From assembly GCA_017521985.1 (NCBI GenBank), contig JAFXAZ010000035.1, positions 625 to 64,624 on the forward strand: 64,000 nucleotides of DNA, in the 5' to 3' direction. Numbering within the stretch: position 1 is the stretch's first letter; the number at the start of each line of letters is the position of its first letter. This document shows positions 38,014 to 58,288 of the stretch, piece after piece. The DNA is from Lachnospiraceae bacterium (lineage in GTDB: Bacteria > Bacillota > Clostridia > Lachnospirales > Lachnospiraceae). Below the pieces are notes generated by a model. That model was not told where the DNA came from. It worked only from the letters and a program-made list of their open reading frames with translations, and ran no database searches. Position numbers and translations under genes: made by a program.

Positions 38014-39108
38014 ATGGATAAAATTCAACCAAATCGTATGGATAGAGGTTTTCAGAAATATCAGGCAGAATTTGAAGCAAAGGCTTTAGAGGTTCTGCGT
38101 TCCGGCTGGTATATTTTGGGTAAGGAAGTTTCCGCCTTTGAAGAGGAATTTGCAGCATATGTAGGTTCTAAGCACTGCGTGGGTGTAGCAAATGGTCTGG
38201 ATGCTCTTTGGATGGCATTCCGCGTACTTGGCATTGGTCCGGGGGACGAAGTTTTAGTTCAGGGCAATACATATATTGCCAGCGTTATGGGTATTACCAT
38301 GAATGGCGCCACTCCGGTTTTTATTGAGCCGGATGAGTATTATCAGATTGATGTTACCAAGCTAGAGGAACATATTACAGACAAGACAAAAGCTATTTTG
38401 GTGGTTCATTTGTATGGCCATAATGCGAAGATGGACGAGGTAGTTGCTCTCTGTAAGAAGTACAATTTACGCCTGGTGGAGGACTGTGCACAGTCTCACG
38501 GCTCCATGTACCAAGGTCAAATGTCCGGTACCTTTGGCGATATCGGATGCTTCTCCTTCTATCCTTCCAAGAATTTGGGAGCTTTTGGTGATGCAGGTGC
38601 GATTACCACCAACGACCCACAGATTGCACAGGACTTCCGTGTACTTCGTAATTATGGCAGCGAGAAACGTTATTACAATAAAATTGTTGGTACCAACTCT
38701 CGTCTGGATGAATTGCAGGCAGGTCTTTTGCGTGTACGCTTACAGTATATGGACGAGCTTACCCGCGAACGTCAGGAATTGGCCGCACGCTACACTGCTG
38801 AGATACGTAATGACAAGCTTATTTTACCTATGGAACGACCGGATACAGTGAATGTATGGCATCAATACGTTATCCGCTGTAAGGAACGAGATGCTTTGAT
38901 TGCACATTTGGAATCACTTGGAATCGGCACCATTATTCACTACCCTATTCCACCACATCTGGCAGAAGCTTATCAGTATCTGGGACATGAAAAAGGAGCA
39001 TATCCTATTACAGAGAAGTACGCAAATGAAGTACTTTCTATCCCGATGTACAACGGCATGACCACAGAAGAACAGGACAGAGTTATTCAGGCATTAAACA
39101 ATTTTTAG
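38014..39108 (+). CDS. DegT/DnrJ/EryC1/StrS-family sugar aminotransferase (FdtB/WecE-like)
   Basis: ...VANGLDAL... and SFYPSKNLGAFGDAG (PLP Lys). Confidence 0.9.
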   Translation: MDKIQPNRMDRGFQKYQAEFEAKALEVLRSGWYILGKEVSAFEEEFAAYVGSKHCVGVANGLDALWMAFRVLGIGPGDEVLVQGNTYIASVMGITMNGATPVFIEPDEYYQIDVTKLEEHITDKTKAILVVHLYGHNAKMDEVVALCKKYNLRLVEDCAQSHGSMYQGQMSGTFGDIGCFSFYPSKNLGAFGDAGAITTNDPQIAQDFRVLRNYGSEKRYYNKIVGTNSRLDELQAGLLRVRLQYMDELTRERQELAARYTAEIRNDKLILPMERPDTVNVWHQYVIRCKERDALIAHLESLGIGTIIHYPIPPHLAEAYQYLGHEKGAYPITEKYANEVLSIPMYNGMTTEEQDRVIQALNNF

Positions 39109-39144
39109 ATGCATTTAAACTTAAGAAAATTCAGGAGATATACT

Positions 39145-39573
39145 TTGAAATTAGCAGATCAGATTAAAATAATAGACTTTGTAGAGCGCGGTGACGAGCG
39201 CGGTAACCTGGTAGTTATCGAAGGAGAAAATCAGGATATTCCTTTTGATATTAAGCGCGTATTTTATATCTACGGTTCTGATTCTACCGTAGTCCGCGGT
39301 CAGCATGCCAATCGACGCACCAAATTTGTCCTGATTAATGTAGCAGGTCAGAGTAAAGTTAAAGTAGACAATGGCTTTGAAACCAAAATCATTTCCTTGG
39401 ACAAGCCTCGTATGGGTCTTTTCTTAGACACCATGGTTTGGAAGGACATGTACGATTTTTCTCCGGACTCTACTTTGTTAGTATTATGCAGTGAGCATTA
39501 TGATGGCAGTGAATATATCCGCGATTATGATGCTTACATAAAAGAAATCAGAGAGGTACATGGTAATGAGTAA
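39145..39573 (+). CDS. WxcM/FdtA-like sugar 3,4-ketoisomerase (cupin)
   Basis: TTG start after AGGAGA. Sequence F.ERGDERGNLVVIE...IPFDIKRVFYIYG......RGQHANR. Confidence 0.75.
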   Translation: MKLADQIKIIDFVERGDERGNLVVIEGENQDIPFDIKRVFYIYGSDSTVVRGQHANRRTKFVLINVAGQSKVKVDNGFETKIISLDKPRMGLFLDTMVWKDMYDFSPDSTLLVLCSEHYDGSEYIRDYDAYIKEIREVHGNE

Positions 39574-40501
39574 AATTTCTATCGTAGTTCCGGTTTACTG
39601 GAATTCTGATACCCTTATGCTTTTATACGAAGATATGAAAGCCAAAATTTTAGACAAACTGGGAGACTACGAATTAGTATTTGTAGATGATGGCTCCGGG
39701 GACAATTCCTGGGAAATCATGAATCAGATTCGTGACATGGATTCTCATGTACAATGTGTAAAGCTCTCCCGTAACTTCGGCGAGCATGCAGCCCTTCTTG
39801 CCGGCTTGTCTGTCTGCACCGGTGACTGTGCCGTAACGAAGCAGGCCGACTTACAGGAAGACAGCGAGATTATTTTAGAAATGTATGAAAGCTGGAAACG
39901 AGGCAATAAAGTCGTTTTGGCCGTTCGTAAGGATCGTGACGAAAACCCGGTCAAAGTATTTTTTGCCAATATGTACTACGCCATTGTGCGCAAGACCATT
40001 ACCAAGAATATGCCGGAAGGCGGCTGTGATTGTTATCTCTTAGACCGTCAGGTTATTCAGGTACTTCAGGACTTAAATGAGAAAAATTCTTCTCTTACCC
40101 TTCAGGTACTTTGGGCAGGCTTCCAGACCGACCATGTATACTTTCACAGACGCGACCGCGAGGTAGGCGAATCCCGCTGGACATTTTCCAAGAAATTTAA
40201 GCTTGTGCTGGATTCCATGATGAGTTTCTCTTACTTCCCAATCCGTATGATGAGTATCGTAGGCGTTACTTTTAATATATTAGCCGTCCTTATGTTTATC
40301 TACGTACTGGCAGAAAAATTTACCGTAGGCACCCCGATTGCCGGCTGGTCCTCCCTCATGTGCGTGGTACTCCTCTCTTCCGGCCTGATTCTTTTAACCC
40401 TCGGAATCTTAGGCGAATACGTTTGGAGAGCATTAGACGCTGCAAGAACCCGCCCACCGTTTATTATTGACGTAGTGAAGAAAGCAACGGAAGAAGATTA
40501 A
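39566..40501 (+). CDS. GT2 polyprenyl-phosphate glycosyltransferase (GtrB/ArnC-like) with two C-terminal TM helices
   Basis: ISIVVPVYWNS...FVDDGSGD...LSRNFGEH... Confidence 0.85.
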   Translation: MSKISIVVPVYWNSDTLMLLYEDMKAKILDKLGDYELVFVDDGSGDNSWEIMNQIRDMDSHVQCVKLSRNFGEHAALLAGLSVCTGDCAVTKQADLQEDSEIILEMYESWKRGNKVVLAVRKDRDENPVKVFFANMYYAIVRKTITKNMPEGGCDCYLLDRQVIQVLQDLNEKNSSLTLQVLWAGFQTDHVYFHRRDREVGESRWTFSKKFKLVLDSMMSFSYFPIRMMSIVGVTFNILAVLMFIYVLAEKFTVGTPIAGWSSLMCVVLLSSGLILLTLGILGEYVWRALDAARTRPPFIIDVVKKATEED

Positions 40502-40612: not shown

Positions 40613-41590
40613 CTATGGTTCTAAGCGAAACTCAAAATCAGCTTGTGGCTCGTCCTTTTGCGGAACCCCTGTTTCCGGCACATATACTCCACCGCCTACG
40701 GTAATCCGTGCATCATCAGTTGTTCCATCTGTATAATGCACCGTGCAAATGATTTCTACATCTTTCATCATTTCTTCAATCGCATTCACTCTGTCTTCCA
40801 GCATCATATTTTTACCATATAAGAAATCCCAGCTATACTCCGTTTCATTGCAGATATTAATCCATGTGTAATCATTCATCTGATTGTCATAAGAAAGAGT
40901 AATGGATTTATAAAGACCAAACACAGAAGCAGGATTGTCCAATGTGTCAGAATCTTCTCCCCCACACAAACCGGTATTTAGTTCTTTTCCATAGGTTTCA
41001 CTTGCTATTAAAATAGACGCATTCGGTCTTTCTACAACCTGAAAAGCGGCCCCATTAATGCTATAGGTAATACTTTCAATATTTTCTCCTTCACACAAAA
41101 AATTAGTCCCTATGCAATATGATACGAAGTCATCTTCGCCTTCACACAAAACACATCCTAAACCATTTTTTTGTACCAATATATTATTACCGGCATTTAA
41201 GGTTACATATCCATTTTCATCAGCCTCCGGATGATCAGCAGCATATGCCTTTAAAGTAAACATCTTTTCAATAGCTTGCATCAAATTATCATCTTTCACA
41301 ATTTCTACATGTGTTTCTCCTTCAAATGTTTCATAATTTTCATTTGATATATCAATGTCAAGAAAGTTGCCTGCTACAATAAACAATGCTATGCATGCGC
41401 ATGCCGCTGTCAAAGTTTTTATCGTCGCTTTCTTTCTTTGTGATTCTTCTTTTCGTAAAATAACATTCTTCTTAATCATATCTTCTGTTCCTCTTTCTTT
41501 GATTTGAATATAAGCCTCGTCCGCTTTTTTCTGAACAATTTCAGGCACTACAACATCTTTTTTTAAAATATCATTATATTTTCTCTCCAT
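40613..41590 (-). CDS. Putative membrane anti-sigma factor
   Basis: Immediately downstream of the ECF sigma gene. Short cytoplasmic N-terminus, a single TM helix (TLTAACACIALFIVAGNF) and an extracellular domain. Confidence 0.5.
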   Translation of the reverse strand: MERKYNDILKKDVVVPEIVQKKADEAYIQIKERGTEDMIKKNVILRKEESQRKKATIKTLTAACACIALFIVAGNFLDIDISNENYETFEGETHVEIVKDDNLMQAIEKMFTLKAYAADHPEADENGYVTLNAGNNILVQKNGLGCVLCEGEDDFVSYCIGTNFLCEGENIESITYSINGAAFQVVERPNASILIASETYGKELNTGLCGGEDSDTLDNPASVFGLYKSITLSYDNQMNDYTWINICNETEYSWDFLYGKNMMLEDRVNAIEEMMKDVEIICTVHYTDGTTDDARITVGGGVYVPETGVPQKDEPQADFEFRLEP

Positions 41591-41604
41591 TAAATGACTC
41601 CTCC

Positions 41605-42096
41605 TCAGCTTTCCATATAATAGCTCTTCAATTTTTTACGCCCTCTGTCAAGCCTGGTCTGCACAGTACTTTTGGGAATATTTAGCAACCCCGCTATTTC
41701 TTGGATGTGATAGCCTTCTCCATAAAAAAGCATCATCACTATACGATATTTTTCATCCAACCGAGAAAGTGCTTCCTTTAGCTCAAAATTGTAAACATCT
41801 TCTATAGATGGCTCTTCTAATTCTTCCACAGAAATTGTCATTTCTCTTTCTTTCCTTATGTCATAGCAATTGTTAATTAAAATACGTATAAGCCATGTTT
41901 TAAAATAACGATTGTGTTTTAACGTCGATAATTTTTCCCAACAAACAAGTATCGTCTCCTGAATTGCATCGGCAGCATCTTCATCATTCATAAGAATAGA
42001 TACCGCTACCTTATACATATCCTTTGTATAGGCTTGCATTAATTTTGTAAAAGCATCCGGATCTTTGTTTTTTGCTTTATGTACTAATTCTTCCAT
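41605..42096 (-). CDS. ECF-type RNA polymerase sigma-70 factor
   Basis: Region 2 ...EDAADAIQET... and region 4 ...GYHIQEIAGLLNIPKSTVQTRLDRGRKKL. Confidence 0.85.
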   Translation of the reverse strand: MEELVHKAKNKDPDAFTKLMQAYTKDMYKVAVSILMNDEDAADAIQETILVCWEKLSTLKHNRYFKTWLIRILINNCYDIRKEREMTISVEELEEPSIEDVYNFELKEALSRLDEKYRIVMMLFYGEGYHIQEIAGLLNIPKSTVQTRLDRGRKKLKSYYMES

Positions 42097-42337
42097 TTAA
42101 CTCTTTTCATACAACCTCCACTCCTTCTTATTTTTCTTTTTCATTAAAATCTGTATTATCTTTTATAGTGAAAATTTATAAAAGGTACCTTGATTATCAC
42201 TACATATATTAGACGTACATTAGCAGAAAAAAATCTCATACTCAAAAAACATCCCATGCAAAATTCATTCAAAACTTTGCATAAGGATATCTTAATCACA
42301 TATTTCTACATTGCTAAAATAAATAAATAGTATCTTC

Positions 42338-42838
42338 CTATTTGTTCTTCATCAGATACTCTTTATATGCTCTTTCTAAAAGCTTAAAGTCACAACTATT
42401 TTCTGTTAATTTGGGCTTTTTATTATGTACTACCATATCATAAATCACACTTGCTTTTTCAAGTATCTCTGATTCATTATTTTTACAAAAACGATACTCT
42501 TTATTTAGTAACATTCTATATTGCTCATCTTCAATATCCTTTATTACAAGACGTTTAATACATTCCTCTGGGACAGGAATCATATAATTAAAACGCAGCG
42601 AACCTTTTATTTCTTTTTTATCTCCTGGTGTGCAAATTAATATATTTGCCTCTTGCTGTATATCGAAAGAGGATACAGACACATAGTAATTCATCCCATT
42701 TACTTTCAATACTGCCCCAAATGAAAATTTATCTCTATCTGAATAATGTATATTTGGCACTTTTGAAAATCCCCTATGTGTTTTTTCGTATGTTTGAAGA
42801 AATCCAATGTATTTTTCATCAATTCTGTAAAAGTCCAT
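42338..42838 (-). CDS. Type III toxin-antitoxin system toxin, ToxN/AbiQ family endoribonuclease
   Basis: MDFYRIDEKYIGFLQ...FGAVLKVNGMNYYVSVSS...LRFNYMIPVP...CDFKLLERAYKEY aligns by eye with ToxN (MKFYTISSKYIEYLKEF...YLAPLTS...LKFMIPI...CNFSLLEEKYRDF). RBS GGAGGA. Confidence 0.8.
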   Translation of the reverse strand: MDFYRIDEKYIGFLQTYEKTHRGFSKVPNIHYSDRDKFSFGAVLKVNGMNYYVSVSSFDIQQEANILICTPGDKKEIKGSLRFNYMIPVPEECIKRLVIKDIEDEQYRMLLNKEYRFCKNNESEILEKASVIYDMVVHNKKPKLTENSCDFKLLERAYKEYLMKNK

Positions 42839-42860
42839 ATTTCCTCCGTAAAACAATAAA

Positions 42861-42885
42861 AGGAGACGAGTAAACTCATCTCCTT
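42861..42885 (-). terminator. Rho-independent terminator between the antitoxin repeats and the toxin gene
   Basis: The minus strand reads AGGAGAUGAG-UUUA-CUCGUCUCCU followed by UUUUAUUGUUUU. This is the position expected in type III TA loci. Confidence 0.75.
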
Positions 42886-42895
42886 AGTAATAACG

Positions 42896-43000
42896 TTCGC
42901 TCTAATGTGGCGAAGCACAAAAATTAAGGTTCACATTTAAAGTAGTGAAGCACTTACATTAAGGTTTGCCTTCAAAGTAGCAATGCACTTAATTGAGCAA
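42896..43000 (-). ncRNA. Candidate type III antitoxin RNA: three imperfect 35-nt tandem repeats
   Basis: Units at 42896-42930, 42931-42965 and 42966-43000. Anchors GAAGCAC/AATGCAC, AAAGTAG and ATTAAGGT recur with an exact 35-nt period. Neighbouring units match at about 24/35 and 21/35 positions by hand alignment. Confidence 0.6.
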
Positions 43001-43013
43001 TTTGCTCACTTAT

Positions 43014-43042
43014 AGTATATGCAATTTCCTTTTCATAGTCAA
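43014..43042 (-). promoter_or_regulatory. Sigma-A promoter of the toxI-toxN-like transcript
   Basis: The minus strand reads TTGACT (43042-43037), 17 nt, TATACT (43019-43014), directly upstream of the repeats. Confidence 0.7.
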
Positions 43043-43057
43043 CCATTTCCATAAAAA

Positions 43058-43567
43058 TTACATAACTTTTTGACCCTTACTAAACGCCCAGTATTTATTA
43101 ATCACATAATTCAGTGGAATGGTAATAATCAAATTAATCGCTGCCGCAAGTATCTCAGATAAAATCTTAGCCTCCAGCACAATGCCAATTTTACTGAGGC
43201 CACTTAAAATTCCCAAATTGCCAAGCAAGGAAAGGACCGGTCTCATAAACTGCTCCAGCTTTATAATCTCCAGCCAGAACACTAAAAGCCCTGCGCTCAG
43301 CACCATGCTGAAACCATAGGTAGCGTAGGTCTTTAACAGTACCTTCCACCAGACTCTCTGTTCGCCTTCCTCTGCCTTAAAGACATATTTGTTGCTCCAG
43401 TAGTAGGCATTCAAAATACTAATCAGGTTGCCGATAATATTGGCTGCCAGATAATGTACGCCAAAGAACAACAGCACTACATAAATGCCTTCACAGATAA
43501 TGGTATTGGACAAGCCCACGATGCAGAACTTGATAAATTGTAAAAATGACTTAATTTTATCCTTCAA
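43058..43567 (-). CDS. GtrA-family membrane protein (polyprenyl-phosphate sugar translocation)
   Basis: FIKFCIVGLSNTII... plus four TM helices and a C-terminal NKYWAF motif. Confidence 0.8.
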   Translation of the reverse strand: MKDKIKSFLQFIKFCIVGLSNTIICEGIYVVLLFFGVHYLAANIIGNLISILNAYYWSNKYVFKAEEGEQRVWWKVLLKTYATYGFSMVLSAGLLVFWLEIIKLEQFMRPVLSLLGNLGILSGLSKIGIVLEAKILSEILAAAINLIITIPLNYVINKYWAFSKGQKVM

Positions 43568-43646
43568 AATTTGCCTCTTTCTGTAATCTATATCTTATAA
43601 ATGGGCTGTCACACCACTGCAACAGCCCAATACAAATCCGTAATTA

Positions 43647-44243
43647 TTAAACATTCTTGGCAATCTTTGCAACTGCCTTGGATACGATGCCACCAACAAT
43701 GGTCGTTGCAATCCATTCTACTACACCATTAATACCCACAAATGCCACTACAAACATCAATGCATTGGCACCTGCTGCATTCAGACTCTGTATGTATTCT
43801 GTGTTCCAGAAAAACAAAATCAGGGTACCCATGAAAAACAGGGTATTTAAAAATGCAGTCATAAAACCGCCCACAAAATAACAGATGGTGTTACTATTAT
43901 CAGCCTTGATAAAGACTTTGAATAACACGCCTGCCAGGTAACCCATAAGAATACGGGTTGGTACGCATACAAAAAAAGTATAAAGTGGATTAATGCTTAA
44001 AAGCATTGCTCCAAACTGGCTCATACCAAAGCACTGGTAAAAGCTGGTAAGTCCGAATACTGCACCTAATACTGCGCCTGCTCCCGGTCCGATAACCATT
44101 GCTCCGATTGCTACCGGAATGGTAATCAAGGAAATTTCAAGTCCAACGGTTTTCAAGTATCCGAGCGGGGTGAATGCCATAATCAAAACAACGGCAATAA
44201 GTATGGCCATCTGTGCCATCTTGATTGTTTTTGTACTACGCAT
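43647..44243 (-). CDS. ECF transporter S component (possibly pantothenate-specific, PanT-like)
   Basis: Six-TM S-component-like profile. The substrate is guessed only from the adjacent coaW. Confidence 0.6.
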   Translation of the reverse strand: MRSTKTIKMAQMAILIAVVLIMAFTPLGYLKTVGLEISLITIPVAIGAMVIGPGAGAVLGAVFGLTSFYQCFGMSQFGAMLLSINPLYTFFVCVPTRILMGYLAGVLFKVFIKADNSNTICYFVGGFMTAFLNTLFFMGTLILFFWNTEYIQSLNAAGANALMFVVAFVGINGVVEWIATTIVGGIVSKAVAKIAKNV

Positions 44244-44368
44244 ACAAAGTTCCTCCTAAAATAGAAATGTTACTGTTTCTACCATATGTAAAATACAGTA
44301 CAAATGTATTTTAGCATGCTAAAAATTTCCTTGCAATTGTTTTTGGCATTGTATTTAATTTAGTACGT

Positions 44369-45214
44369 TTATACGGTAACCGGGCTGCATTCTCTGGCCG
44401 TTACCAAAGCCGCACCGATAGAGGTGGCAAAGCCTGCATGCTCCGGAATCACAAAATATACACCCTCTCCTGCCAGCTCTGCACAGTCCTTGGTAATAAA
44501 ATCACATTCCGCAAAATTCGCCAAAGAACCAATTAAAATAAACTCTTTGACACCCATATTATGAGCAATTAATGTGCCCGTATGGCATAGATTTTCAATC
44601 ACCATATGCACAATGCCTGCTGCAATATCTTCCTTGGAAACCATTTCCTCCACCTTGCCAAAGTTGGCCGCAGTAACATTTAAATTAAGACCGGGCAACG
44701 GCTGCTTGGAAATATCCCCAATCAACAAATCAATCTGCTTGTAATCTCCCTGGGAAGAAAGTGCCTGAATAGCGTCCACATCCTGGGTATTAAGCAACAA
44801 TTTGGACAATCCCAAAATAGTGCCGCCGCCAATAGCAATACCGCCTAAATGGGTCAATTTATCGCCTTCTACCAGCACATAAGACGTACCGGTGCCCATG
44901 CTGACTACTACGGATTTTTCTTCCTTGGCAAAAAAGCGTCCGCCTACACCATTTGCTACAAACTCATCTACCTTATAAGTAGGTATACCATAAATCGGCT
45001 TCGTCACACCACTGCTTCCCACGCCTGTCAAATGAATTTCTGCAATATCAGACAAATCCAGTTCATTTTCCGTCAAAAACTGACCAAACGCACCAAACAA
45101 AGACGCAATGGGATTACTTGCCTCTACCTGAATACACTTGAGTAAATTCTTCCCTACAAAGCCGGATATTTTGGTAGTGCTGCCACCAATATCAATACCT
45201 ACGATGGTTTTCAT
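44369..45214 (-). CDS. coaW: Type II pantothenate kinase (CoaW-like, ASKHA fold)
   Basis: IVGIDIGGSTTKI, SMGTGTSYV, GGIAIGGGTILGL, QIDLLIGDI...LPGLNLNVTAANFG and GFATSIGAAL align by eye with Staphylococcus CoaW blocks. Confidence 0.7.
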   Translation of the reverse strand: MKTIVGIDIGGSTTKISGFVGKNLLKCIQVEASNPIASLFGAFGQFLTENELDLSDIAEIHLTGVGSSGVTKPIYGIPTYKVDEFVANGVGGRFFAKEEKSVVVSMGTGTSYVLVEGDKLTHLGGIAIGGGTILGLSKLLLNTQDVDAIQALSSQGDYKQIDLLIGDISKQPLPGLNLNVTAANFGKVEEMVSKEDIAAGIVHMVIENLCHTGTLIAHNMGVKEFILIGSLANFAECDFITKDCAELAGEGVYFVIPEHAGFATSIGAALVTARECSPVTV

Positions 45215-45215
45215 A

Positions 45216-46460
45216 TTAACCCTCCACAATTTTACCTGCAACCGCACTGGCCGCTGCTGTTTTCGGGGAAGCCAGGAAAATTTCCACCTTGGAAGTACCC
45301 ATACGACCTAAGAAATTACGATTGTTGGTCGCCACAACACGTTCCCCATCTGTAAGTATACCACCAGTTCGTCCACAACACAAGCCACAACCGGGATGGG
45401 TTATCATAGCACCTGCTTTTGCAAGAATTTCCATAGTTCCGTTTTCCACGGCCTCACGATAAACCTTGCGGCTGGCAGGAGTTACAATCAACTTTACAAA
45501 AGGTGCAACCTGTTTATCTTTTAAAATTTCTGCAGCTGCCATCAGGTCTTCTAATCGTCCATTGGTACAAGAACCGATAAATACCTGGTCAATCTCCGTG
45601 CCTGCCAACGCACGAACCGGTTTAATATTGTCTACCTGAGAAGGACAAGCTAATACCGGTACAAAGTCCTCCGCTTTATAATATATCTCTTTACAATATA
45701 CCGCATCTGCATCGCCCACCAAAGAACTTTCTGCCTCAGTCAGCTCCATTTCACAATATTCTGCGGTCTTTTCATCCGGAGTAAATAAAGCACATTTTGC
45801 ACCTGCTTCAATGGCCATATTTGCCATAGTCATACGGCTGGCAATGGTCATATTTTCCACGGTGTCCCCGGAAAATTCCAATGCCTTATACGTAGCACCG
45901 TCTGCACCTAAATCTCCAATCAACGTCAAAATAATATCCTTGCTGGTTACGTTAGCTGCAAGCTTACCTGTAATATGTACTTTAATGGTTTCAGGCACTC
46001 TCACCCACATCGTACCGGTACCAAGGATACTTGCCATCTCTGTGTACCCGATTCCGGAAGAAAAGGCGCCCACACAGCCATAAGTGGTAGTGTGACTGTC
46101 TGTACCAAAAACAATATTGCCCGGCTTTACATAGCCCGCCTCCGTCATCAACTGATGGCAGATACCGTCACTGCGGTGCACATGCTTCATGCCGTATTTT
46201 GCAGCAAATTCATTGCCTTTTCTAAAATGTCTGGCATCGTCCAACTGACTTGCCGGAACTAAGTGGTCGTAAATAAGTACCACCTTATCTGCATCCCAAA
46301 GCTTGGTAAAGCCCATTTCTTCAAATTTGTCCGCCACAAAAGGAATGAAAATGTCGTGAATCATCACTCTGTCCACATTTACCGTCACAATCTGCCCCGG
46401 CTTTACACATTCCGCTCCTATATTTCTTGCAATGATTTTTTCAATAATTGTTGAACCCAT
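45216..46460 (-). CDS. Aconitase-family dehydratase large subunit (LeuC/HacA-type), copy 2
   Basis: ...GTDSHTTTYG..., GSCTNGR and CG.C Fe-S ligand blocks. About 414 aa, the archaeal-type short LeuC form. Confidence 0.8.
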   Translation of the reverse strand: MGSTIIEKIIARNIGAECVKPGQIVTVNVDRVMIHDIFIPFVADKFEEMGFTKLWDADKVVLIYDHLVPASQLDDARHFRKGNEFAAKYGMKHVHRSDGICHQLMTEAGYVKPGNIVFGTDSHTTTYGCVGAFSSGIGYTEMASILGTGTMWVRVPETIKVHITGKLAANVTSKDIILTLIGDLGADGATYKALEFSGDTVENMTIASRMTMANMAIEAGAKCALFTPDEKTAEYCEMELTEAESSLVGDADAVYCKEIYYKAEDFVPVLACPSQVDNIKPVRALAGTEIDQVFIGSCTNGRLEDLMAAAEILKDKQVAPFVKLIVTPASRKVYREAVENGTMEILAKAGAMITHPGCGLCCGRTGGILTDGERVVATNNRNFLGRMGTSKVEIFLASPKTAAASAVAGKIVEG

Positions 46461-46469
46461 ACCACACCT

Positions 46470-46961
46470 CTAATCCAGTCCGTTTAATTTACGCATTGCC
46501 TTTACCAAACCGCCGGCTGAAATAATATCTACCAGATTCTGTGGCAAGGAAGTAATTTCATAATGCTGTCCGTTATGCTCAATGTCCTGATTTACGGTCA
46601 CGGTAATGGTATCGCCTTCGTTCACTGCTGCCTGCAACGCATCGTTTTCAATCAACAGCAACCCATTATTGATGGAATTACGGAAGAAAATGCGTGCGAA
46701 GGACTTGGCAATGACACATCGTACCCCCAGTGCCTTGATAATTTCCGGTGCCTGTTCTCTGGAGGAACCGCAGCCAAAATTTTTACCTGCTACAATCATA
46801 TCACCCGGTTTTATCTGTGCTGCCAGCTCCGGTCTTAATGGACTAAATGCATAAGGTGTCATATCCTGTATGCTTTTTAATGCTAAATATTCCGTTGGAA
46901 TAATAATGTCGGTATCGATATCGTCACCCAACACCCATACTGTTCCTGTAAATTGTTCCAT
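46470..46961 (-). CDS. Aconitase-family dehydratase small subunit (LeuD/HacB-type), copy 2
   Basis: ...DDIDTDIIIP...AGKNFGCGSSREQAP... Confidence 0.8.
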   Translation of the reverse strand: MEQFTGTVWVLGDDIDTDIIIPTEYLALKSIQDMTPYAFSPLRPELAAQIKPGDMIVAGKNFGCGSSREQAPEIIKALGVRCVIAKSFARIFFRNSINNGLLLIENDALQAAVNEGDTITVTVNQDIEHNGQHYEITSLPQNLVDIISAGGLVKAMRKLNGLD

Positions 46962-46996
46962 ATTCTTCTCTTTTCTGTGCCTTTTTGGTGCACGCT

Positions 46997-48253
46997 TTAT
47001 TCTAACATATCTGCTGTGGTAATCACACCTGCCACTGCACTTGCCGCAACGGTCGCTGCACTTGCCAGATACACAAAACTGTTTGGATGGCCTGCACGCC
47101 CCTTGAAATTACGGGTACCGGTACTAATCAGAGTCTCGCCCTCTCCGATAACACCCTGACAGCTTCCCCAGCAAACACTGCAGTTGGCATTCATCACAAT
47201 AGCCCCTGCTTCCATAAAAATATCCATCAGGCCTTCCTTCAGAGCCTGCATATATACCGTCTGGCTGGCCGGTACTACCAACAGCCTTACAAGCGGATGT
47301 ACTTTTCTTCCCTTTAATACGGCTGCTGCCACACGCAAGTCTTCGATGCGACCGTTGTTGCAGGAACCAATAAATGCCTCGTCAATCTTGACTCCGGCAC
47401 ATTCCTTCGCAGGTACTACATTATCTACAAAGTGAGGCTTTGCAACGATAGGTCGGATGGTACCTAAATCAATATCATAAACCTTGGCATACTGCGCGCC
47501 TTCATCACTCTTAAATACATGCTTTGGTGTACGTCCATGCTCCTTTAAATAATCCAGTGCCACGTCATCCACTTCCATAAGCGCTGTTTTGGCACCGGCT
47601 TCTACACAAAGATTACAAACAGCAATGCGGTCTGCCATAGTAAGCGTCGCAAGCCCTTCCCCGCCAAATTCCATCGCCATGTAATTGGCACCATTGGCAC
47701 TAATCTGACCAATTATGGTCAAAATCAAATCTCTGGCATATACGCCCTCCGGAAGCTTTCCGGTCAGGTTAAAGCGAAGAGTCTCTGGCACCAGTACCCA
47801 AGACTTTCCCGTCACCATAGCATATAAATAGTCGGTACAACCAACACCGGTACCAAACGCACCCAGTGCACCATATGCACAAGTGTGGCTGTCTGCACCA
47901 AAAATCAATTCACCCGGACGCACGTGATTTTCCATCATTACCTGATGACATACACCGGCCCCCTCATAAAACGTAATGCCATGCTCCTTAGCAAAATCAC
48001 GCATTTTTTTGTGACTGGCTGCGGTCTTTGGACTGTCACACGGCACATTATGGTCTACTACCCACACCAGCTTGGAAACATCTGCAATGTGAGGGTGTTT
48101 TAATTTATTATGATACATATCAATGGTAAGGTGCGTGGTGCCGTCGTTACTCAGTAACTGATCCACTTCCACCGTATGTATATCGCCTGCCTGAACGCAA
48201 TCTACGCCTGCTGCCGCCGCAATAATTTTCTCTGCCATTGTCATCGGCTTCAT
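46997..48253 (-). CDS. Aconitase-family dehydratase large subunit (LeuC/HacA-type), copy 1
   Basis: ...GADSHTCAYG..., GSCNNGR and NCSVCWG blocks. Confidence 0.8.
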   Translation of the reverse strand: MKPMTMAEKIIAAAAGVDCVQAGDIHTVEVDQLLSNDGTTHLTIDMYHNKLKHPHIADVSKLVWVVDHNVPCDSPKTAASHKKMRDFAKEHGITFYEGAGVCHQVMMENHVRPGELIFGADSHTCAYGALGAFGTGVGCTDYLYAMVTGKSWVLVPETLRFNLTGKLPEGVYARDLILTIIGQISANGANYMAMEFGGEGLATLTMADRIAVCNLCVEAGAKTALMEVDDVALDYLKEHGRTPKHVFKSDEGAQYAKVYDIDLGTIRPIVAKPHFVDNVVPAKECAGVKIDEAFIGSCNNGRIEDLRVAAAVLKGRKVHPLVRLLVVPASQTVYMQALKEGLMDIFMEAGAIVMNANCSVCWGSCQGVIGEGETLISTGTRNFKGRAGHPNSFVYLASAATVAASAVAGVITTADMLE

Positions 48254-48254
48254 A

Positions 48255-48731
48255 CTACACTTCCTCCTTATTTAATGATGCAATAAGTCCACCCTGGTCT
48301 AAAATCCCCTGCATATAAGGTGGAAGCTTCGTACAAGTATACTGCACACCATTTACGGCAGCAACGCCTTCTGACATATCCAGACTCATTTCATCCCCTT
48401 CAGAAACCGCGCCATAAAGTTCCTTACACACAATAACCGGCAAACCGATATTAATGGCATTGCGGTAAAAAATACGTGCAAAGGACTTTGCAACCACTGC
48501 CTGAACGCCCAATGCCTTTAACACACTTGGTGCCTGTTCTCTACTGGAACCGCAACCGAAATTTTCCTCTGCTACTACAAAATCTCCGGGTCTAACCTTG
48601 GCAGCAAACTCCGGGTCTAAGGATTCAAAGGTATGCACCTTCATCTCCTCAATGGTCGGATATAATAAATACTGGGATGCAATAATCTGGTCCGTATCCA
48701 CATCCCTATGAAAACGAAAAACTTTTCCCAT
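48255..48731 (-). CDS. Aconitase-family dehydratase small subunit (LeuD/HacB-type), copy 1
   Basis: ...DVDTDQIIAS...AEENFGCGSSREQAP... Confidence 0.8.
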   Translation of the reverse strand: MGKVFRFHRDVDTDQIIASQYLLYPTIEEMKVHTFESLDPEFAAKVRPGDFVVAEENFGCGSSREQAPSVLKALGVQAVVAKSFARIFYRNAINIGLPVIVCKELYGAVSEGDEMSLDMSEGVAAVNGVQYTCTKLPPYMQGILDQGGLIASLNKEEV

Positions 48732-48924
48732 AGTCACTCCTCCATAGTCCATAAAAATTCTTTCAGACTATATAAAACTAATATTTTACTATTGTATCAC
48801 AAAATACCTCAAAAAAATAGGAGTGATTTTAACCTTTTAACATGCATTATTTATCCTTTTTTTGCATAAAACTGCACTTTTCATAATATATTGGTAACCA
48901 GTGATTTTATCCTTTGGAGATGCT

Positions 48925-53811: not shown

Positions 53812-55059
53812 TCAGCTTTGTTTTTTGCAACACTTGAAGGCAAAACCAAACATACATTCCTGTTCCAGCTTCAGATCATGATTCAACATATACTGTATTA
53901 CTTCTGTAAGCTCACCATCTTCTCTTCTTTGCTCCATCATTTTTTGTAAACGCACTTTGTCATTCTCGGATAACTTCCTGCCAAAATCAGCATACTTCTC
54001 CAATGTAGCCCGGTCCATACAAAAACGCATAAACGGTATCTGCGTTCGTTCACACAAATCCCGATAAATCTCAAATCCGCCAGCATCTATATCCCCAAAA
54101 TGTAAATACTGTGCCTTCGGTAGTTTTTCATAAATCATTTTTAACAAGGTACATCTTAAAGAATTATGATATCCACCAAGATAAATCATCAGTGTCTTTT
54201 CCTGGTTCCATCTGAAAAATGTAGTCAGATTCTCAATCGTTAACACGTTCTCAACATCTTCCACATCTTTAAACTGTATTTTACTTATATCATCTCCAGA
54301 AATACCAATTCCCTGCTTAAGCGTCCCTATCTGCAGAGCTTCACCAGAAATATACAACGTCACATTTCCTTTAAAATATACATAGTTCGGTGTATGATAT
54401 ATGCCATATTCTGCCAAAATATCATCCCCATCTTTCTCTGTAAACTCATCACAAAACCTACGCATCACCTTAACGATTTTACTGATGTTCTTTTCAAAAA
54501 ACTTGGTGTCGTGAAAGTTTTTAATTGAAAATTCTCTTACATAGCACTGCTCTGTATTTTGTTCCACCGCATATATGCCTTTCAGCAAGGCTTCGGTTTC
54601 TGAAAGTTTCTCCGTGTCTATAAATTCTTTTACGGACTGGCTATTACGAAGCCTTTCCTCCAAAAATTCCATAAAACGCAGACAAATAGGGGTATCATAT
54701 CTGTCCTTCCACTCGGAAAGTGCTTTTAAATTCGCAGAAAGAATATCCGTCTGGGGCGTCCTTTTCACATAAACATAAATTTCCTTCAGCTTTTCCGGAC
54801 ACAAAATAACTTTTTCCAGAATATGTCCGACTTTCCTCCGTTTCCACACCAGCCGGACATATCCTTTTCTTTCGCATTCTTGCAATAACGCATGTATGTC
54901 TTCATAAACAGCAGAGCTTTCTTCAAAATAAGCCGGCAATGTCTTTTTATTTACCGGAAAACTGATATTTATATTTATTTGATTGTCACCGGTAAACAAT
55001 TTACTGCGTTCATAAGAATCCAACAGCTTATGAAGCACTGCTTTATCATATTGCACCAT
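53812..55059 (-). CDS. jetD: Wadjet JetD (Toprim/topo-VI-like nuclease subunit)
   Basis: C-terminal Toprim-like block YLGGYHNS...YLHFGDIDAGGFEIYRDL. Fourth gene after the SMC-like ATPase. Confidence 0.75.
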   Translation of the reverse strand: MVQYDKAVLHKLLDSYERSKLFTGDNQININISFPVNKKTLPAYFEESSAVYEDIHALLQECERKGYVRLVWKRRKVGHILEKVILCPEKLKEIYVYVKRTPQTDILSANLKALSEWKDRYDTPICLRFMEFLEERLRNSQSVKEFIDTEKLSETEALLKGIYAVEQNTEQCYVREFSIKNFHDTKFFEKNISKIVKVMRRFCDEFTEKDGDDILAEYGIYHTPNYVYFKGNVTLYISGEALQIGTLKQGIGISGDDISKIQFKDVEDVENVLTIENLTTFFRWNQEKTLMIYLGGYHNSLRCTLLKMIYEKLPKAQYLHFGDIDAGGFEIYRDLCERTQIPFMRFCMDRATLEKYADFGRKLSENDKVRLQKMMEQRREDGELTEVIQYMLNHDLKLEQECMFGFAFKCCKKQS

Positions 55060-58000
55060 TATAGTACCTCTCAGCAAAGCTGACCTTTTCATCTGTCATA
55101 ACCAAAAGTGTGCCCTCTACGTGCGGACTGATATACTGAATCTTATCCGGCGGTGCTGCAATAATAATCTGTAGAGGGAGTCTGCGCAAAAACTCCAGCA
55201 CACCTCCTATTCGCTCGTCGTCCATATTGTTAAAGGCTTCATCAAACATCACCAGGCCTATTGCCTCTCCGCCGATATTATTGCGGTACAGCTGCACAAA
55301 AGAAGCTGCTACCGTCACATAGAACGGAGTCTGGGTTTCTCCGCCACTCTTTTCCTCACATACCTTGGAGTAATAAGAGAAGCTGCCATCTGTGTGACTG
55401 ATTTTAATATCGTAGTCCATATACGTACGGTAATCGGTAAATTCATCCAGCGCTCTTGTATCGTTTTCACCATCCAATGCCAGCTTATCAAACAGCTCGT
55501 CGATCACTTCCTTATGATTTTCATGGAAAATTCCAGAGAAAATAGACTCTCCTTGCACTGCATTGAAATCGTCCATAATCATATCATAATACTGTTTATA
55601 GTGCTTGCTGGCACTATAAGTAAATTCATATCGCTCATTGCTGAATACAATATCCTTCAGAGCCTTATTCAAATCCTTGAACTCATCCTGTGCATTCTTC
55701 ATATTTTCCTGAAGCTTTGCCAAAAACTGCTCTCTGAATTCCTCTTCTGCACTTTGTCTGGCGGATTCCACCTTCTCTTCATACTTCAAAAGTTCAGAGT
55801 TTACTAATCGTTCATATACAAGAGCAAACTCCGGGTAACCTTCCATGGAAGGGGCCGCGCCAAAGTCATGAGCCGTTTTATATGCCACCATAGCTTGAAC
55901 CATTTGCGTTTTTGCATTATCGATAATTGTCATATTGGCCTTCTTACGTCTGGCATAATTATCGCGAAACTGTTCATAGCTTTTATCCGAAGTCTGCTTT
56001 TCGTATTCACTGTTCCATGCCGACAGCCTGTCTCCCGCCTGCTCGCCAAGAAATACAAAGGCAGTCTGCTTTTCCAGAAATACACCCTGCTGATGCTCTG
56101 TGCTCTCCTCAATGTTTCGTAGCTTTTCTTCAATATTGCCGATATTACGGTCTCTCTTACTGATTTCTTCCTCTAAATCCTTTAAAAGAGCCTCTAAAGC
56201 ATCCAACTGCAGACGCTTTTGCAACACGTTGGAGTTTTTTTCTAACGTCGCAATATTGGCTTTGCAGTGCTGTATTTCCAATTGTACTACACGCATTTTG
56301 CCAATTACATCCACCTTATACCAAATATCCAAATCAACATCTGTTTCCAGTGGCTGCAATACATACTCTAAATTATTCGCCTGCTCTGTAAGCTTTTGAA
56401 TCCTTAATGACAACTGTTCCCGCTGCGCTTTTGCCTGCATAAGCTGAACCTTTGCCGCCTCACGCCCTATGTAAGGCTTTTTATAAATCTCCGGCTTAAT
56501 GGCACTTGCTACATGATTTTGATATCGCATACACTCGCGGGTAATAGACGTCGGATATTGCTTTAACTGCTGGTAATGGTCACACATCTGTACCTTACCC
56601 AGTATCATATTGATATAACGCTTGGCATATTTATTTTTGGAGGTAACCACAGTAGCCAAGGTGCCCTCCGGTGCCTTTTCATATTTGTCAAGCTTCTGGG
56701 GATTGATTAGACCTACGCCATACACCTTTCCCTCTTTACGAAGCTTATCATAAATCCCCAAAGCAATATCAAACCCTTCCGGGTCTACCAGTACATAAAA
56801 TCTCTGTGTGTTCAAATAACCTTCTACTGCATTTTTCCAGCTTTCATCTGTAACCTCCAACAATTCACACAATATTCTCGGTTCACTCTTTCTGCCGATT
56901 CCTGCAAATTCCGCTTTGGTCGTTTCCATTAAGCGAAGTACTTCCTCCGCATAAGGAAGTCGGTCCTTCTGCAATTGTTCGATTTTTCGGTCTAATTCCA
57001 GACGTTCGGATTTCAAATTTTCCAAATCAATCTGAACCGCAGCCATTTTCATCCGAACCTTTTCATACATGAGTTTCTTGTAATCAATCACACATCTGGT
57101 AATTCTTTTTACTTCAGCAATATCCTGCATGCGCTCAATATCCTGCAATGCACTCCTATATTCCCTGATACAGCCATCGGTATCTTTTACCTCCAGCAAT
57201 TTGTCTGCCTGCTTCATGGCATTTCTTAGGCTCAGCATGAAATCCTGCTTTTCTTCCTTTAATTCCTTTGCTTTATCTTCCAGCTTTGCCAATTGTTTTT
57301 TCTGGTCATCCAGCGCAAGAAAATCCTTGTCCTGTGCAAGCTCTGCCCAAATATTATCACGAATGCTCTGTTTTTCCTCTTTTTCCTTCTTTACTACATC
57401 TAAGGCTTTACGCTGCTCCTCTAGACGTAACTGCTCCTCCTTTACTCTGCGATGCAGGTCTGAAAGCATTGTTTTCACGGCATCTGCTTCTGCACGAGCC
57501 AAATAATAATCGTAGGTTTTATCCTTTTCCAGACCGTCTACTACCTGTGCATGCAGATTTTCAATACCTTCCAACTTGCGGATACGCTCTTTTACACTAT
57601 CCAAGGTTCTCTGTAAATCCTGATAGCTTCGCACATTTTCTCGCAAAATATCCACATTTACTTCTTTTTCATCCAACACATAAGAGTACACAAAGTCCTT
57701 GATATCTTTAATCGGTCGAAAGGCCATGGCCTTAGGAATCAAATGGAAAAATTTCTCTTCAATCCTGCCGAATCGGGACTGTACCATGCTTTTGGCTTCC
57801 TTATCTGTTTTACACAACTTGGTAATCTGCTTCGCGTTGGTCGTTCTGAACTGCGTAATGGACTTCGGTGTTTTACCCACAAAGAACAATTCATCCGACA
57901 ATCGAACTCCATCCATCAGATAACGTACCACGGTCTCCTGTCCTTCTGTAGCCGAGTCAATCACCGCACCCACTATAAAATATCGTTTCTTACTTTCCTC

Positions 58001-58288
58001 AAAAAATTCCAACGCAACATGAGCACTGATTTCACCGGTTCTTTCATAAGGCTTATTTTCCCTACCTGTTTTACAACGGATGTAACCGGTCAACTTACGC
58101 TTTCCGTTTTCGTGGGCAGCCTTATTAAAAGAGCCGGAAGAACACGTTACCACAAACTGAATTGCGTCCAATAATGTAGACTTTCCGGCGCCGTTTTCCC
58201 CTGACAAAAGAGTAGAAGTATCTAATTCAATACACGCATTACTAAAACGATGCCAGTTAATCAATCTCACTCTCATCAGCTTCTTCAT
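55046..58288 (-). CDS. jetC: Wadjet JetC (SMC/MukB-like ABC ATPase with a long coiled coil)
   Basis: Walker A LSGENGAGKSTLLDAIQF, ~800 aa of coiled coil, signature SGGE, Walker B LVMFDEAFNNMD. The start is ambiguous (58288 or 58276). Confidence 0.85.
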   Translation of the reverse strand: MKKLMRVRLINWHRFSNACIELDTSTLLSGENGAGKSTLLDAIQFVVTCSSGSFNKAAHENGKRKLTGYIRCKTGRENKPYERTGEISAHVALEFFEESKKRYFIVGAVIDSATEGQETVVRYLMDGVRLSDELFFVGKTPKSITQFRTTNAKQITKLCKTDKEAKSMVQSRFGRIEEKFFHLIPKAMAFRPIKDIKDFVYSYVLDEKEVNVDILRENVRSYQDLQRTLDSVKERIRKLEGIENLHAQVVDGLEKDKTYDYYLARAEADAVKTMLSDLHRRVKEEQLRLEEQRKALDVVKKEKEEKQSIRDNIWAELAQDKDFLALDDQKKQLAKLEDKAKELKEEKQDFMLSLRNAMKQADKLLEVKDTDGCIREYRSALQDIERMQDIAEVKRITRCVIDYKKLMYEKVRMKMAAVQIDLENLKSERLELDRKIEQLQKDRLPYAEEVLRLMETTKAEFAGIGRKSEPRILCELLEVTDESWKNAVEGYLNTQRFYVLVDPEGFDIALGIYDKLRKEGKVYGVGLINPQKLDKYEKAPEGTLATVVTSKNKYAKRYINMILGKVQMCDHYQQLKQYPTSITRECMRYQNHVASAIKPEIYKKPYIGREAAKVQLMQAKAQREQLSLRIQKLTEQANNLEYVLQPLETDVDLDIWYKVDVIGKMRVVQLEIQHCKANIATLEKNSNVLQKRLQLDALEALLKDLEEEISKRDRNIGNIEEKLRNIEESTEHQQGVFLEKQTAFVFLGEQAGDRLSAWNSEYEKQTSDKSYEQFRDNYARRKKANMTIIDNAKTQMVQAMVAYKTAHDFGAAPSMEGYPEFALVYERLVNSELLKYEEKVESARQSAEEEFREQFLAKLQENMKNAQDEFKDLNKALKDIVFSNERYEFTYSASKHYKQYYDMIMDDFNAVQGESIFSGIFHENHKEVIDELFDKLALDGENDTRALDEFTDYRTYMDYDIKISHTDGSFSYYSKVCEEKSGGETQTPFYVTVAASFVQLYRNNIGGEAIGLVMFDEAFNNMDDERIGGVLEFLRRLPLQIIIAAPPDKIQYISPHVEGTLLVMTDEKVSFAERYYNGAI

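Follow-up and report, generated by a model that had tools for sequence, protein, structure and literature searches.

A chromosomal toxIN-type type III toxin–antitoxin locus of a Lachnospiraceae bacterium and the predicted structure of its three-unit antitoxin RNA

Organization of the locus and family of the toxin

The locus described here raises the question of whether a gene of 166 codons and the three rather dissimilar repeats lying upstream of it constitute a functional type III toxin–antitoxin (TA) module. It is located on the minus strand of a stretch of 64,000 nucleotides (nt) from a Lachnospiraceae bacterium (GenBank assembly GCA_017521985.1, contig JAFXAZ010000035.1, positions 625 to 64,624 of the forward strand), hereafter referred to as the window, to which all the coordinates below refer. 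An earlier note, made from the letters of this DNA, had interpreted the locus as a complete module including a promoter, RNA repeats, a terminator and a ToxN-family toxin gene. The analysis reported here makes it very probable (about 0.85) that the locus represents a functional chromosomal toxIN-type type III TA module, working as outlined in the next section; our confidence in phage defence as its role in this host is much lower than that in the identity of the module.

According to the published criteria (PMC3401426), a type III TA locus embeds a toxN homologue preceded by a terminator palindrome and, further upstream, by tandem repeats and a promoter. All these elements were found in the window, in this order and in agreement with the earlier note: the predicted promoter TTGACT-17-TATACT (43042-43014), the GGAGGA ribosome binding site (RBS; 42847-42842) ahead of the ATG at 42838 and the open reading frame (ORF) of 166 amino acids (aa; 42838-42338) are present as claimed, and the terminator hairpin with its U-run (42885-42860) lies within a few bases of the position originally given. 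The features of the locus are the following, S1 and S2 being the first and the second stem of each repeat unit:

43037..43042, minus strand: -35 hexamer TTGACT of the predicted toxI-toxN promoter (consensus scan; a TTGAyT equivalent occurs in related loci)
43014..43019, minus strand: -10 hexamer TATACT (consensus scan; the TATAAT/TATACT column is kept in the 57-array alignment A2, see below)
42994..43008, minus strand: 5' leader hairpin TGAGCA-AAT-TGCTCA at the start of the transcript (inverted repeat; folding of 57 arrays)
42956..42990, minus strand: ToxI unit 1, 35 nt; S1 AAGT/ACTT, S2 TTGC/GCAA (sequence-only nhmmer match, covariation)
42921..42955, minus strand: ToxI unit 2, 35 nt; S1 AAGT/ACTT, S2 TCAC/GTGA, lengthened by one more T-A pair (TTCAC/GTGAA) (nhmmer match, covariation)
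42886..42920, minus strand: ToxI unit 3, 35 nt; S1 TGT/ACA plus a flanking T.T mismatch, S2 TCGC/GCGA (nhmmer match)
42850..42885, minus strand: intrinsic terminator between toxI and toxN, with the stem-loop at 42885-42860 and the U-rich tail at 42859-42850
42842..42847, minus strand: RBS GGAGGA of toxN (a GGAGG-like motif precedes the ATG in related loci too)
42338..42838, minus strand: toxN, coding for a 166-aa toxin of the ToxN/AbiQ family of endoribonucleases; ATG at 42838, stop codon included (profiles, structures)
42253..42285, minus strand: terminator-like hairpin ending the operon (14 pairs, T-run, -18 kcal/mol)

The promoter has a 17-nt spacer and matches the consensus at ten of 12 positions, which makes it the best one on the minus strand within 41500-44500; from the position of its -10 hexamer, transcription is predicted to start at about 43007. 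The terminator between toxI and toxN is composed of an 11-bp stem, a 4-nt loop and a U-rich tail (-16 kcal/mol), and its stem covaries in the 57 loci aligned, with double changes in nine of the 11 pairs and 97.6% of the cells able to pair. Other ORFs of the region were considered and discarded. The 172-aa ORF beginning at TTG 42856 starts inside the U-tail of the terminator, the RBS is spaced for the ATG at 42838, and the homologues begin with MDFY; the ORFs at 42706-42918 (minus strand) and 42628-42873 (plus strand) are without support, since they cut across the RNA elements or are antisense to toxN.

The 166-aa protein was compared with profiles and solved structures. It matches the Pfam family ToxN_toxin (PF13958) with an E-value of 4.5e-44 and a score of 150.8 bits (cut-off 25), the match spanning residues 1-161 and all 159 positions of the profile; this is the sole Pfam family above its cut-off. 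The AbiQ model of PADLOC also matches it (2.2e-32). Among the sequences of solved structures, the matches are restricted to four ToxN/AbiQ chains, i.e., 4ATO (1.9e-11), 2XD0 (2.6e-9), 7D8O (8e-9) and 4GLK (2.7e-7), and no CptN or TenpN chain was retrieved from the PDB at E ≤ 1. Furthermore, the AlphaFold2 model of the protein (pLDDT 86.9, pTM 0.83) was aligned by Foldseek to ToxN of Pectobacterium (2xd0), E. coli (7d8o) and Bacillus (4ato) with template modelling (TM) scores of 0.78-0.80 and to AbiQ (4glk) with a score of 0.73, whereas the score for CptN (4rmo) was 0.53 (E 9.5e-3); TenpN was absent from the four Foldseek matches at E ≤ 0.001. On the basis of the sequence profiles, the similarity to solved chains and the predicted fold, which agree with each other and with the toxin call of the earlier note, the protein is a member of the ToxN/AbiQ family.

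The earlier note had left the choice among the toxIN, cptIN and tenpIN sub-families to a profile search. Besides the match with PF13958, the TM scores of 0.78-0.80 to ToxN compared with 0.53 to CptN assign the locus to toxIN. The absence of a CptN sequence match, the low TM score and the 35-nt repeat do not fit a cptIN locus, nor do the lack of a TenpN match and the same repeat length fit a tenpIN one.

The repeat array as a putative ToxI antitoxin

The sequence upstream of toxN is periodic. Tandem Repeats Finder reported a period of 35 with 2.4 copies and 75% matches at 42910-42992, and the period-35 autocorrelation from about 43013 to 42886 is 0.559, compared with a maximum of 0.513 in 5000 shuffles. 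The array is composed of three full 35-nt units plus a part-unit in the leader, immediately upstream of toxN and on the same strand. The period and the number of the imperfect tandem units given by the earlier note are thus borne out, while the register that it had proposed (43000-42896) is about 10 nt off; its estimate of 60-70% identity between repeats is close to the 63-77% measured.

To place these units in a broader context, 80 genome loci encoding relatives of the toxin were retrieved and the 240 nt upstream of each gene were inspected. Nearly all of them share the same plan, in which TTGAyT...TATAAT and a short hairpin are followed by units of 35-36 nt and these, in turn, by a terminator, an RBS and the start codon ATG, and the same array layout precedes about 70 homologous toxins from Lachnospiraceae, Oscillospiraceae, Selenomonadaceae, Erysipelotrichaceae and others. 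A sequence-only hidden Markov model (HMM) found three units in most loci, two in six and four in one. The units differ from each other according to their position: unit 1 of the window is 85% identical to unit 1 of the other loci and unit 2 is 93% identical to their unit 2. Stem 2 reads uuGC/GCaa in unit 1 across the three-unit arrays counted, uCAC/GUGa in unit 2 (57 of 59 arrays) and uCGC/GCGa in unit 3 (56 of 59). Over about 60 loci, units at the same position are 88-92% identical between loci in the pseudoknot core, against 69-74% for the units within one array; this, in turn, implies that the divergence of the units predates the radiation of the clade and that each unit has been kept separately. 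This comparison of related loci shows the low identity of the repeats to reflect an old, structure-preserving divergence and not decay, with the units diverged but, as far as can be judged from their conservation, functional. The earlier note had regarded the antitoxin as less certain than the toxin owing to the weak identity and the number (about three) of the repeats; this reservation does not hold, given the presence of the array in about 70 relatives, the covariation of the pseudoknot described below and the ToxI-like architecture of the units.

The folding of the array was analysed on two alignments. The first one (A2) is a whole-array alignment of 57 distinct three-unit arrays, in which the structure tested consisted of two stems per unit plus the terminator: 94.5% of the cells pair, a share that drops to 33-50% once the 3' partners are shifted by 1-3 columns, and double changes occur in 20 pairs. 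The second one (A3) includes 148 distinct single units, comprising those associated with toxins only 42-47% identical to that of the window, aligned with MAFFT, which is blind to structure; some distant units were set in register by hand, and the slid-partner controls guard against the resulting bias. An initial pseudoknot model with 5+5 base pairs was dropped in favour of a 4+4 one, since pairs 5:12 and 7:26 fail in 42-44 of the 148 units. In the refined model, S1 joins positions 1-4 with 13-16 and S2 joins positions 8-11 with 22-25. Of the 1184 cells, 98.4% pair under this model (19-46% when slid), and 135 show double changes, versus 31 in shuffles.

Double changes affect seven of the eight pairs of the pseudoknot, and S2 pairs in 100% of the cells over all 148 units. 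For instance, pair 9:24 is C-G in 107 units and U-A in 40, and pair 1:16 is A-U in 118, G-C in eight, C-G in six and U-A in four. The distant loci (toxins 42-47% identical) have the same two stems, with AAGU/ACUU replaced by CGGC/GCCG or UGGU/ACCG. Moreover, some unpaired positions are almost invariant, namely G5 in loop 1 (142 of 148 units) and A19 in loop 2 (147 of 148), and the junction 12.21 is U.U in 68 units and A-U in 41. This pattern of covariation shows each ToxI unit to be, in terms of predicted structure, an H-type pseudoknot with single-stranded tails. Of 57 internal linkers, 51-52 carry the motif UUAAU at the counterpart of the site, 4 nt before pseudoknot position 1, where E. coli ToxI is cut (GAA^AU; PMC8860590).

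The region between the -10 box and unit 1 was judged by folding each sequence separately, the MAFFT alignment of the leader not being useful. A hairpin of at least 5 bp is found there in all 57 arrays (mean z-score of -4 versus shuffles), with stems of variable sequence (GAGCAA/TTGCTC, GAACCT/AGGTTC, GGAATC/GATTCC and others). It resembles the 3' half of a repeat unit and, from this similarity, looks like a remnant part-unit; as a guess, it might protect the 5' end or provide the 5' flank of the first processing site. No such hairpin was found in the enterobacterial and Bacillus loci compared.

Two of the distant loci retrieved have a different organization. In an uncultured Ruminococcus metagenome-assembled genome (MAG; L085), a gene for a 43%-identical ToxN is preceded by 46-nt repeats with an S1-like hairpin (AGCG/CGCU), without the S2 pairing of the other arrays and with an extra GCUUCGGC element, so that the architecture of its antitoxin may be different. 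In an uncultured Hungatella MAG (L083), a single pseudoknot unit with a long loop 2 is followed by a terminator and a 47%-identical toxN, which codes for FS instead of the SS/TS pair of the active site; this system may be degenerate or minimal.

Taken together, these data are consistent with the following scheme, whose processing and inhibition steps we infer by homology with solved ToxIN complexes. A single sigma-70-type promoter (43042-43014) would drive a transcript composed of the leader hairpin followed by the three 35-nt ToxI units. Most transcripts would end at the terminator (42885-42860) and a minority would read through into toxN, leaving the antitoxin RNA in excess. ToxN, a putative metal-independent endoribonuclease, would cut the linkers of the precursor between two A's (UUA^AU), the cuts predicted in the window by positional homology with solved ToxI being 42960|42959 and 42925|42924. 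The cleavage would release RNAs of about 35 nt ending in a 2',3'-cyclic phosphate, the middle processed RNA being predicted as AUGUAAGUGCUUCACUACUUUAAAUGUGAACCUUA; unit 3 may remain attached to the terminator hairpin. Each RNA would then bridge two toxins, its tails filling the active-site groove of one ToxN and another groove of its neighbour, which would yield a closed and inactive assembly, probably a 3:3 ring. If the supply of the labile RNA drops or the complex is disturbed, typically by phage infection, ToxN would be freed and would cleave cellular and phage RNAs, so that growth would stop and the infection would abort.

Relatives, genomic surroundings and alternative explanations

The protein collection searched contains 831 homologues of the toxin, many of which (from Agathobacter, Lachnospiraceae and Oscillospiraceae) are named "type III toxin-antitoxin system ToxN/AbiQ family toxin" or "protein AbiQ". 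The window toxin belongs to a small sub-branch, sharing 83-89% identity with P0001-P0003 and at most 75% with all the others. The closest genome locus (L007) is from a Lachnospiraceae MAG, whose toxin is 88% identical and whose toxIN occupies the same site between flanks that are 84% identical. The ratio of nonsynonymous to synonymous substitution rates (dN/dS) of toxN between the window and L007 is 0.11 at a dS of 0.52; by this comparison, toxN is under purifying selection. According to a hand count of the aligned rows, the ToxI units of the same two loci differ at about five of 105 positions (about 95% identity), with no pair broken, the only change in a stem keeping the pairing.

At the population level, the exact toxin, with its ORF intact, was found on 17 metagenome contigs, its neighbours being the same in the six places shown, and the intergenic region and toxN are identical in 13 of the 15 contigs comparable base by base. 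No contig with an identical GtrA neighbour and an empty site was found, as all those extending far enough carry toxN. In one metagenome contig (L096, 3011-3228), whose GtrA is identical to that of the window, the site, the promoter, the leader and the start of unit 1 are the same, and from the middle of unit 1 onward there are different ToxI units and a different terminator (87% identity, with indels), the contig ending before toxN; as far as the sequences go, this indicates an allelic variant of the toxIN cassette in the same species.

A separate observation concerns five loci from MAGs labelled as Alistipes, Bacteroidaceae, Bacteroidales and Bacteroides (L008, L009, L023, L032 and L046), which carry toxIN cassettes near the clade consensus, with toxins 69-73% identical to that of the window and the same ToxI units. 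The presence of toxIN in these Bacteroidota bins may be due either to horizontal transfer across phyla or to mis-binned contigs.

As regards the genomic context, toxIN is flanked by genes for surface glycans at 38014-40501 (plus strand) and 43058-43567 (minus strand), which code for a DegT/DnrJ aminotransferase, an FdtA/WxcM-like protein, a family-2 glycosyltransferase and GtrA. Surface-glycan genes often shape phage receptors. Directly downstream of toxN (40613-42096, minus strand) there are the genes for a sigma-70 factor of the extracytoplasmic function (ECF) type (163 aa) and for a 325-aa protein, for which no family match was obtained and which is a possible anti-sigma factor. Both are lacking in the otherwise syntenic L007, and the difference represents an insertion or a deletion next to the module. 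The host is apparently a spore-forming Firmicute, because it encodes SpoVAD. No plasmid, prophage or transposon genes were found among the flanking ORFs scanned (approximately 32 to 58 kb). At 53812-58351 (minus strand), a 426-aa protein with JetD_C (PF09983, 4e-19) and DUF3322 domains is encoded next to a 1101-aa SMC/SbcC-like ATPase; from these domains, the genes are probably part of a Wadjet (JetABCD) anti-plasmid system, lying about 11 kb from toxIN.

Plasmids carry 181 records related to the toxin, all below 60% identity and, among the matches listed, at most 38%; the relatives from phages and viruses amount to three phage records and two viral contigs, all distant. Elsewhere in the window, two consecutive pairs of genes for large and small subunits of the aconitase family are found at 45216-48752 (minus strand), representing LeuCD- or homoaconitase-like tandem paralogues, and a 30-nt (and 90-nt) tandem repeat with 9.4 copies and 91% matches lies at 2349-2629, inside long overlapping ORFs on both strands; the latter is probably a repetitive protein-coding segment.

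Some observations weigh against the interpretation of the locus as a functional toxIN module. The promoter-like matches occur at chance density in this AT-rich region (14 found versus 12.6 expected from shuffles); since they are no commoner than in shuffled sequences, the promoter call rests mainly on the conservation of the element at the same place in the 57 related arrays. NCBIfam gave no model match for the toxin (nor for GtrA, the 325-aa protein or an energy-coupling factor transporter protein), and Rfam ToxI (RF02519, gathering threshold of 50 bits) did not match the window at E ≤ 10, where only chance snoRNA-like matches were obtained. However, RF02519 matches only the array of B. thuringiensis pAW63 (59, 47 and 40 bits), missing the enterobacterial ToxI as well as the clade of the window, and is specific to the 34-nt Bacillus type; its miss is therefore no argument against a ToxI function. 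The 2012 survey that defined these families aligned consensus repeats only and, from the new hosts, assayed only cptIN and tenpIN loci (PMC3401426). The position of the module, which is not on a plasmid, in a prophage or in an obvious defence island, makes the anti-phage role the least supported step of the scheme.

The remaining adverse points concern the active site and unit 3, and they would fit an attenuated or decaying relic, with a toxin devoid of a Lys55 equivalent and an eroding repeat array. The active-site residues of ToxN are Tyr29, Lys33, Thr52, Ser53 and Lys55 (PMC5086642), and the toxicity of the E. coli enzyme is abolished by K33A, T52V and K55A (PMC8860590). In the window toxin, Y32, K37, S56 and S57 align with the first four of these residues and are invariant in the clade. 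The likely counterpart of Lys55 is the position occupied here by I60-Q61 (codons given as window 42659-42664), where 110 of 120 homologues have K or R: the window toxin and its three closest relatives, to which the replacement is confined among the 120, read SSFDIQQE, whereas a basic residue follows the serines by 2-4 positions in all the other ToxN sequences compared, such as SSFDKKQE (most of the clade), TSPKK (Pectobacterium) and LSYKK (AbiQ). Furthermore, the window protein alone has C69 in place of the usual R69.

On the RNA side, unit 3 is the most divergent: its pair 2:15 is swapped from A-U to U-A in a compensatory way, loop L2 is shorter by 1 nt, S1 retains only three Watson-Crick pairs plus a mismatch, and the 3' linker reads UUAUU, the UUAAU motif being lost; the identity of 63-77% between units might also be taken as erosion. 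Against this stand the low dN/dS over an appreciable dS within the lysine-less clade, the ToxI units that have diverged from those of L007 less than the flanks have, with pairing kept in the sole stem change, and the ORF, which is undamaged and the same on 17 contigs. Units differ in a position-specific manner that is conserved over about 60 loci, hence not by erosion. Moreover, two further homologues lack a basic residue at the position of I60/Q61, and the loop contains indels, so that its equivalence to Lys55 is uncertain. Given the strong purifying selection, we read I60/Q61 as a variant that is tolerated or compensated rather than as an inactivation, and we consider a relic improbable.

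It might also be supposed that the repeats, which lie directly upstream of the terminator and of the toxin gene and on the same strand, do not code for a trans-acting antitoxin but represent a cis-acting leader, i.e., an attenuator, a platform tuning the read-through, or DNA iterons. The covariation reflects selection on RNA pairing and not on the DNA sequence; unit by unit, the agreement with solved ToxI extends to the fold, the special nucleotides and the length (PMC8860590), the conserved single-stranded UUAAU linkers fit cleavage sites of ToxN, and an attenuator made up of three independent, equivalent pseudoknots would be unusual. This makes a cis-acting leader very unlikely. More weight has to be given to the possibility that ToxN and ToxI are a genuine pair with a role other than phage defence, such as a selfish or stabilising addiction element or a stress-responsive growth brake. 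Ordinary genes (GtrA, glycosyltransferase, ECF sigma factor) surround the module on the chromosome, its occurrence at the same site in a relative with flanks only 84% identical suggests a long vertical residence, and its clade is almost absent from the phage and viral collections; in addition, cptIN loci from gut Firmicutes did not protect E. coli against phages (PMC3401426), and type III systems can double as addiction modules (PMC5086642). Conversely, the toxIN-family members tested so far (Pectobacterium ToxIN and AbiQ) all abort phage infection (PMC5086642), and both the different ToxI allele found in the same species and the patchy distribution of near-identical cassettes across families and phyla resemble the turnover of defence genes, to which the probable Wadjet system 11 kb away can be added. 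A non-defence role is thus a possible alternative, although we hold it for unlikely, and we retain the toxIN module with the scheme proposed above.

A further step, which goes beyond this interpretation, is that the three ToxI units might not be interchangeable, one transcript supplying one distinct set for one 3:3 ring, and that the toxin might have become independent of the lysine in this sub-branch; we put it forward as a speculation with a rather small chance of being right. The differences between the stems of the units could have been selected against mispairing between neighbours during co-transcriptional folding, or could fix the place or the stability of each RNA.

In practical terms, the evidence is sufficient to annotate the locus confidently as a toxIN type III TA system and as a candidate abortive-infection module in a gut Lachnospiraceae-like chromosome. 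Its antitoxin RNA is missed by the two automatic resources tried, with no match in Rfam and no model in NCBIfam; an RNA family for the toxIN clade most common among human-gut Firmicutes could be built from the approximately 70 arrays and 148 distinct units collected here, whose pseudoknot alignment is well supported. As for repeat finders, a low identity within an array can mean structure-preserving divergence rather than decay. Finally, the lysine-less toxin and the position-specific units raise small questions on the chemistry of ToxN and on the assembly of ToxIN.

Comparison with known type III systems

The toxIN, cptIN and tenpIN families were defined by Blower et al. in 2012 (PMC3401426). 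The window locus, with three 35-nt units and a 166-aa toxin, falls in the ranges reported for toxIN, i.e., repeats of 31-62 nt in 1.9-5.6 copies and a mean toxin length of 168 aa (PMC3401426). That survey already listed toxIN loci from gut Lachnospiraceae, among them those of Ruminococcus sp. 5_1_39BFAA, Roseburia intestinalis and R. torques ATCC 27756 (PMC3401426). They belong to the same clade as the window locus: that of Ruminococcus sp. 5_1_39BFAA corresponds to L033 of our set, with a 69%-identical toxin and the same three-unit array. The window toxin differs in belonging to the small sub-branch with the I60/Q61 substitution. A literature search found no later work on this gut-Firmicute toxIN clade.

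The ToxIN systems of Pectobacterium atrosepticum pECA1039 and E. coli (PDB 2XD0/2XDB/2XDD and 7D8O) have the same order of promoter, ToxI repeats, terminator and toxN. The toxins share the fold (TM 0.78-0.79) with an identity of only 22-26%, and the units are nearly equal in length (35-36 nt here versus 36). In E. coli ToxI, S1 has four canonical pairs and G5 in loop 1 is crucial for folding; S2 comprises a U12.U22 pair together with a G21 triple, A-minor contacts are made by A19 and A20, the 5' tail covers -3 to 0 and the 3' tail 26-32, and the RNA is cleaved in GAA^AU (PMC8860590). The units of the window clade follow the same pseudoknot plan, with S1 joining 1-4 and 13-16, G5 in loop 1, the 12.21/22 junction and A19 in loop 2, and their tails correspond as well, with 7 nt at the 3' end and 4 nt, starting with AU, at the 5' end; the enterobacterial ToxI AGGTGATACGCTACCACTAAGTGCGAAC... 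is recognisably similar in sequence to the clade consensus AAGTGCGTTGCTACTTTGAGTGCAAAC.

The differences are that the array comprises three non-identical units instead of 4.6-5.6 near-identical ones, that loop 2 is 1 nt shorter and the linker is UUAAU instead of GAAAU, that a conserved 5' leader hairpin is present and the presumed Lys55 counterpart is missing from the clade of the window, and that the module is located on the chromosome of a Gram-positive anaerobe rather than on a plasmid.

The ToxIN system of B. thuringiensis pAW63 (4ATO) provides the best sequence match among the solved structures (E 1.9e-11, 30% identity) and also derives from a Firmicute. Its ToxI has about three repeats (2.9 x 34 nt), which are likewise non-identical and show apparently compensatory changes, so that non-identical ToxI units are not unprecedented. 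In contrast with the window locus, its ToxN is longer (194 aa) and plasmid-borne, and the two RNAs are unrelated enough in sequence for RF02519 to match that of pAW63 only. The AbiQ/antiQ system of L. lactis pSRQ900 (4GLK) has 35-nt repeats in 2.8 copies (PMC5086642), as in the period of the window; the nucleophile of AbiQ is a serine, Ser51 (PMC5086642), and the window protein has S56-S57. AbiQ is the weakest of the four structure matches of the ToxN family (E 2.7e-7, TM 0.73) and is a plasmid-borne dairy gene for phage resistance.

CptIN of Eubacterium rectale (4RMO) and TenpIN of Photorhabdus follow the same operon logic of type III systems, CptIN being found in the same gut Firmicutes; their repeats are of 40-48 nt and 39-57 nt, respectively (PMC3401426), compared with 35 nt here. 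Overall, the locus belongs to a kind that has been catalogued since 2012 and is a well-supported but ordinary example of it, with a few small twists, and the current understanding of type III systems is left unchanged by these findings.

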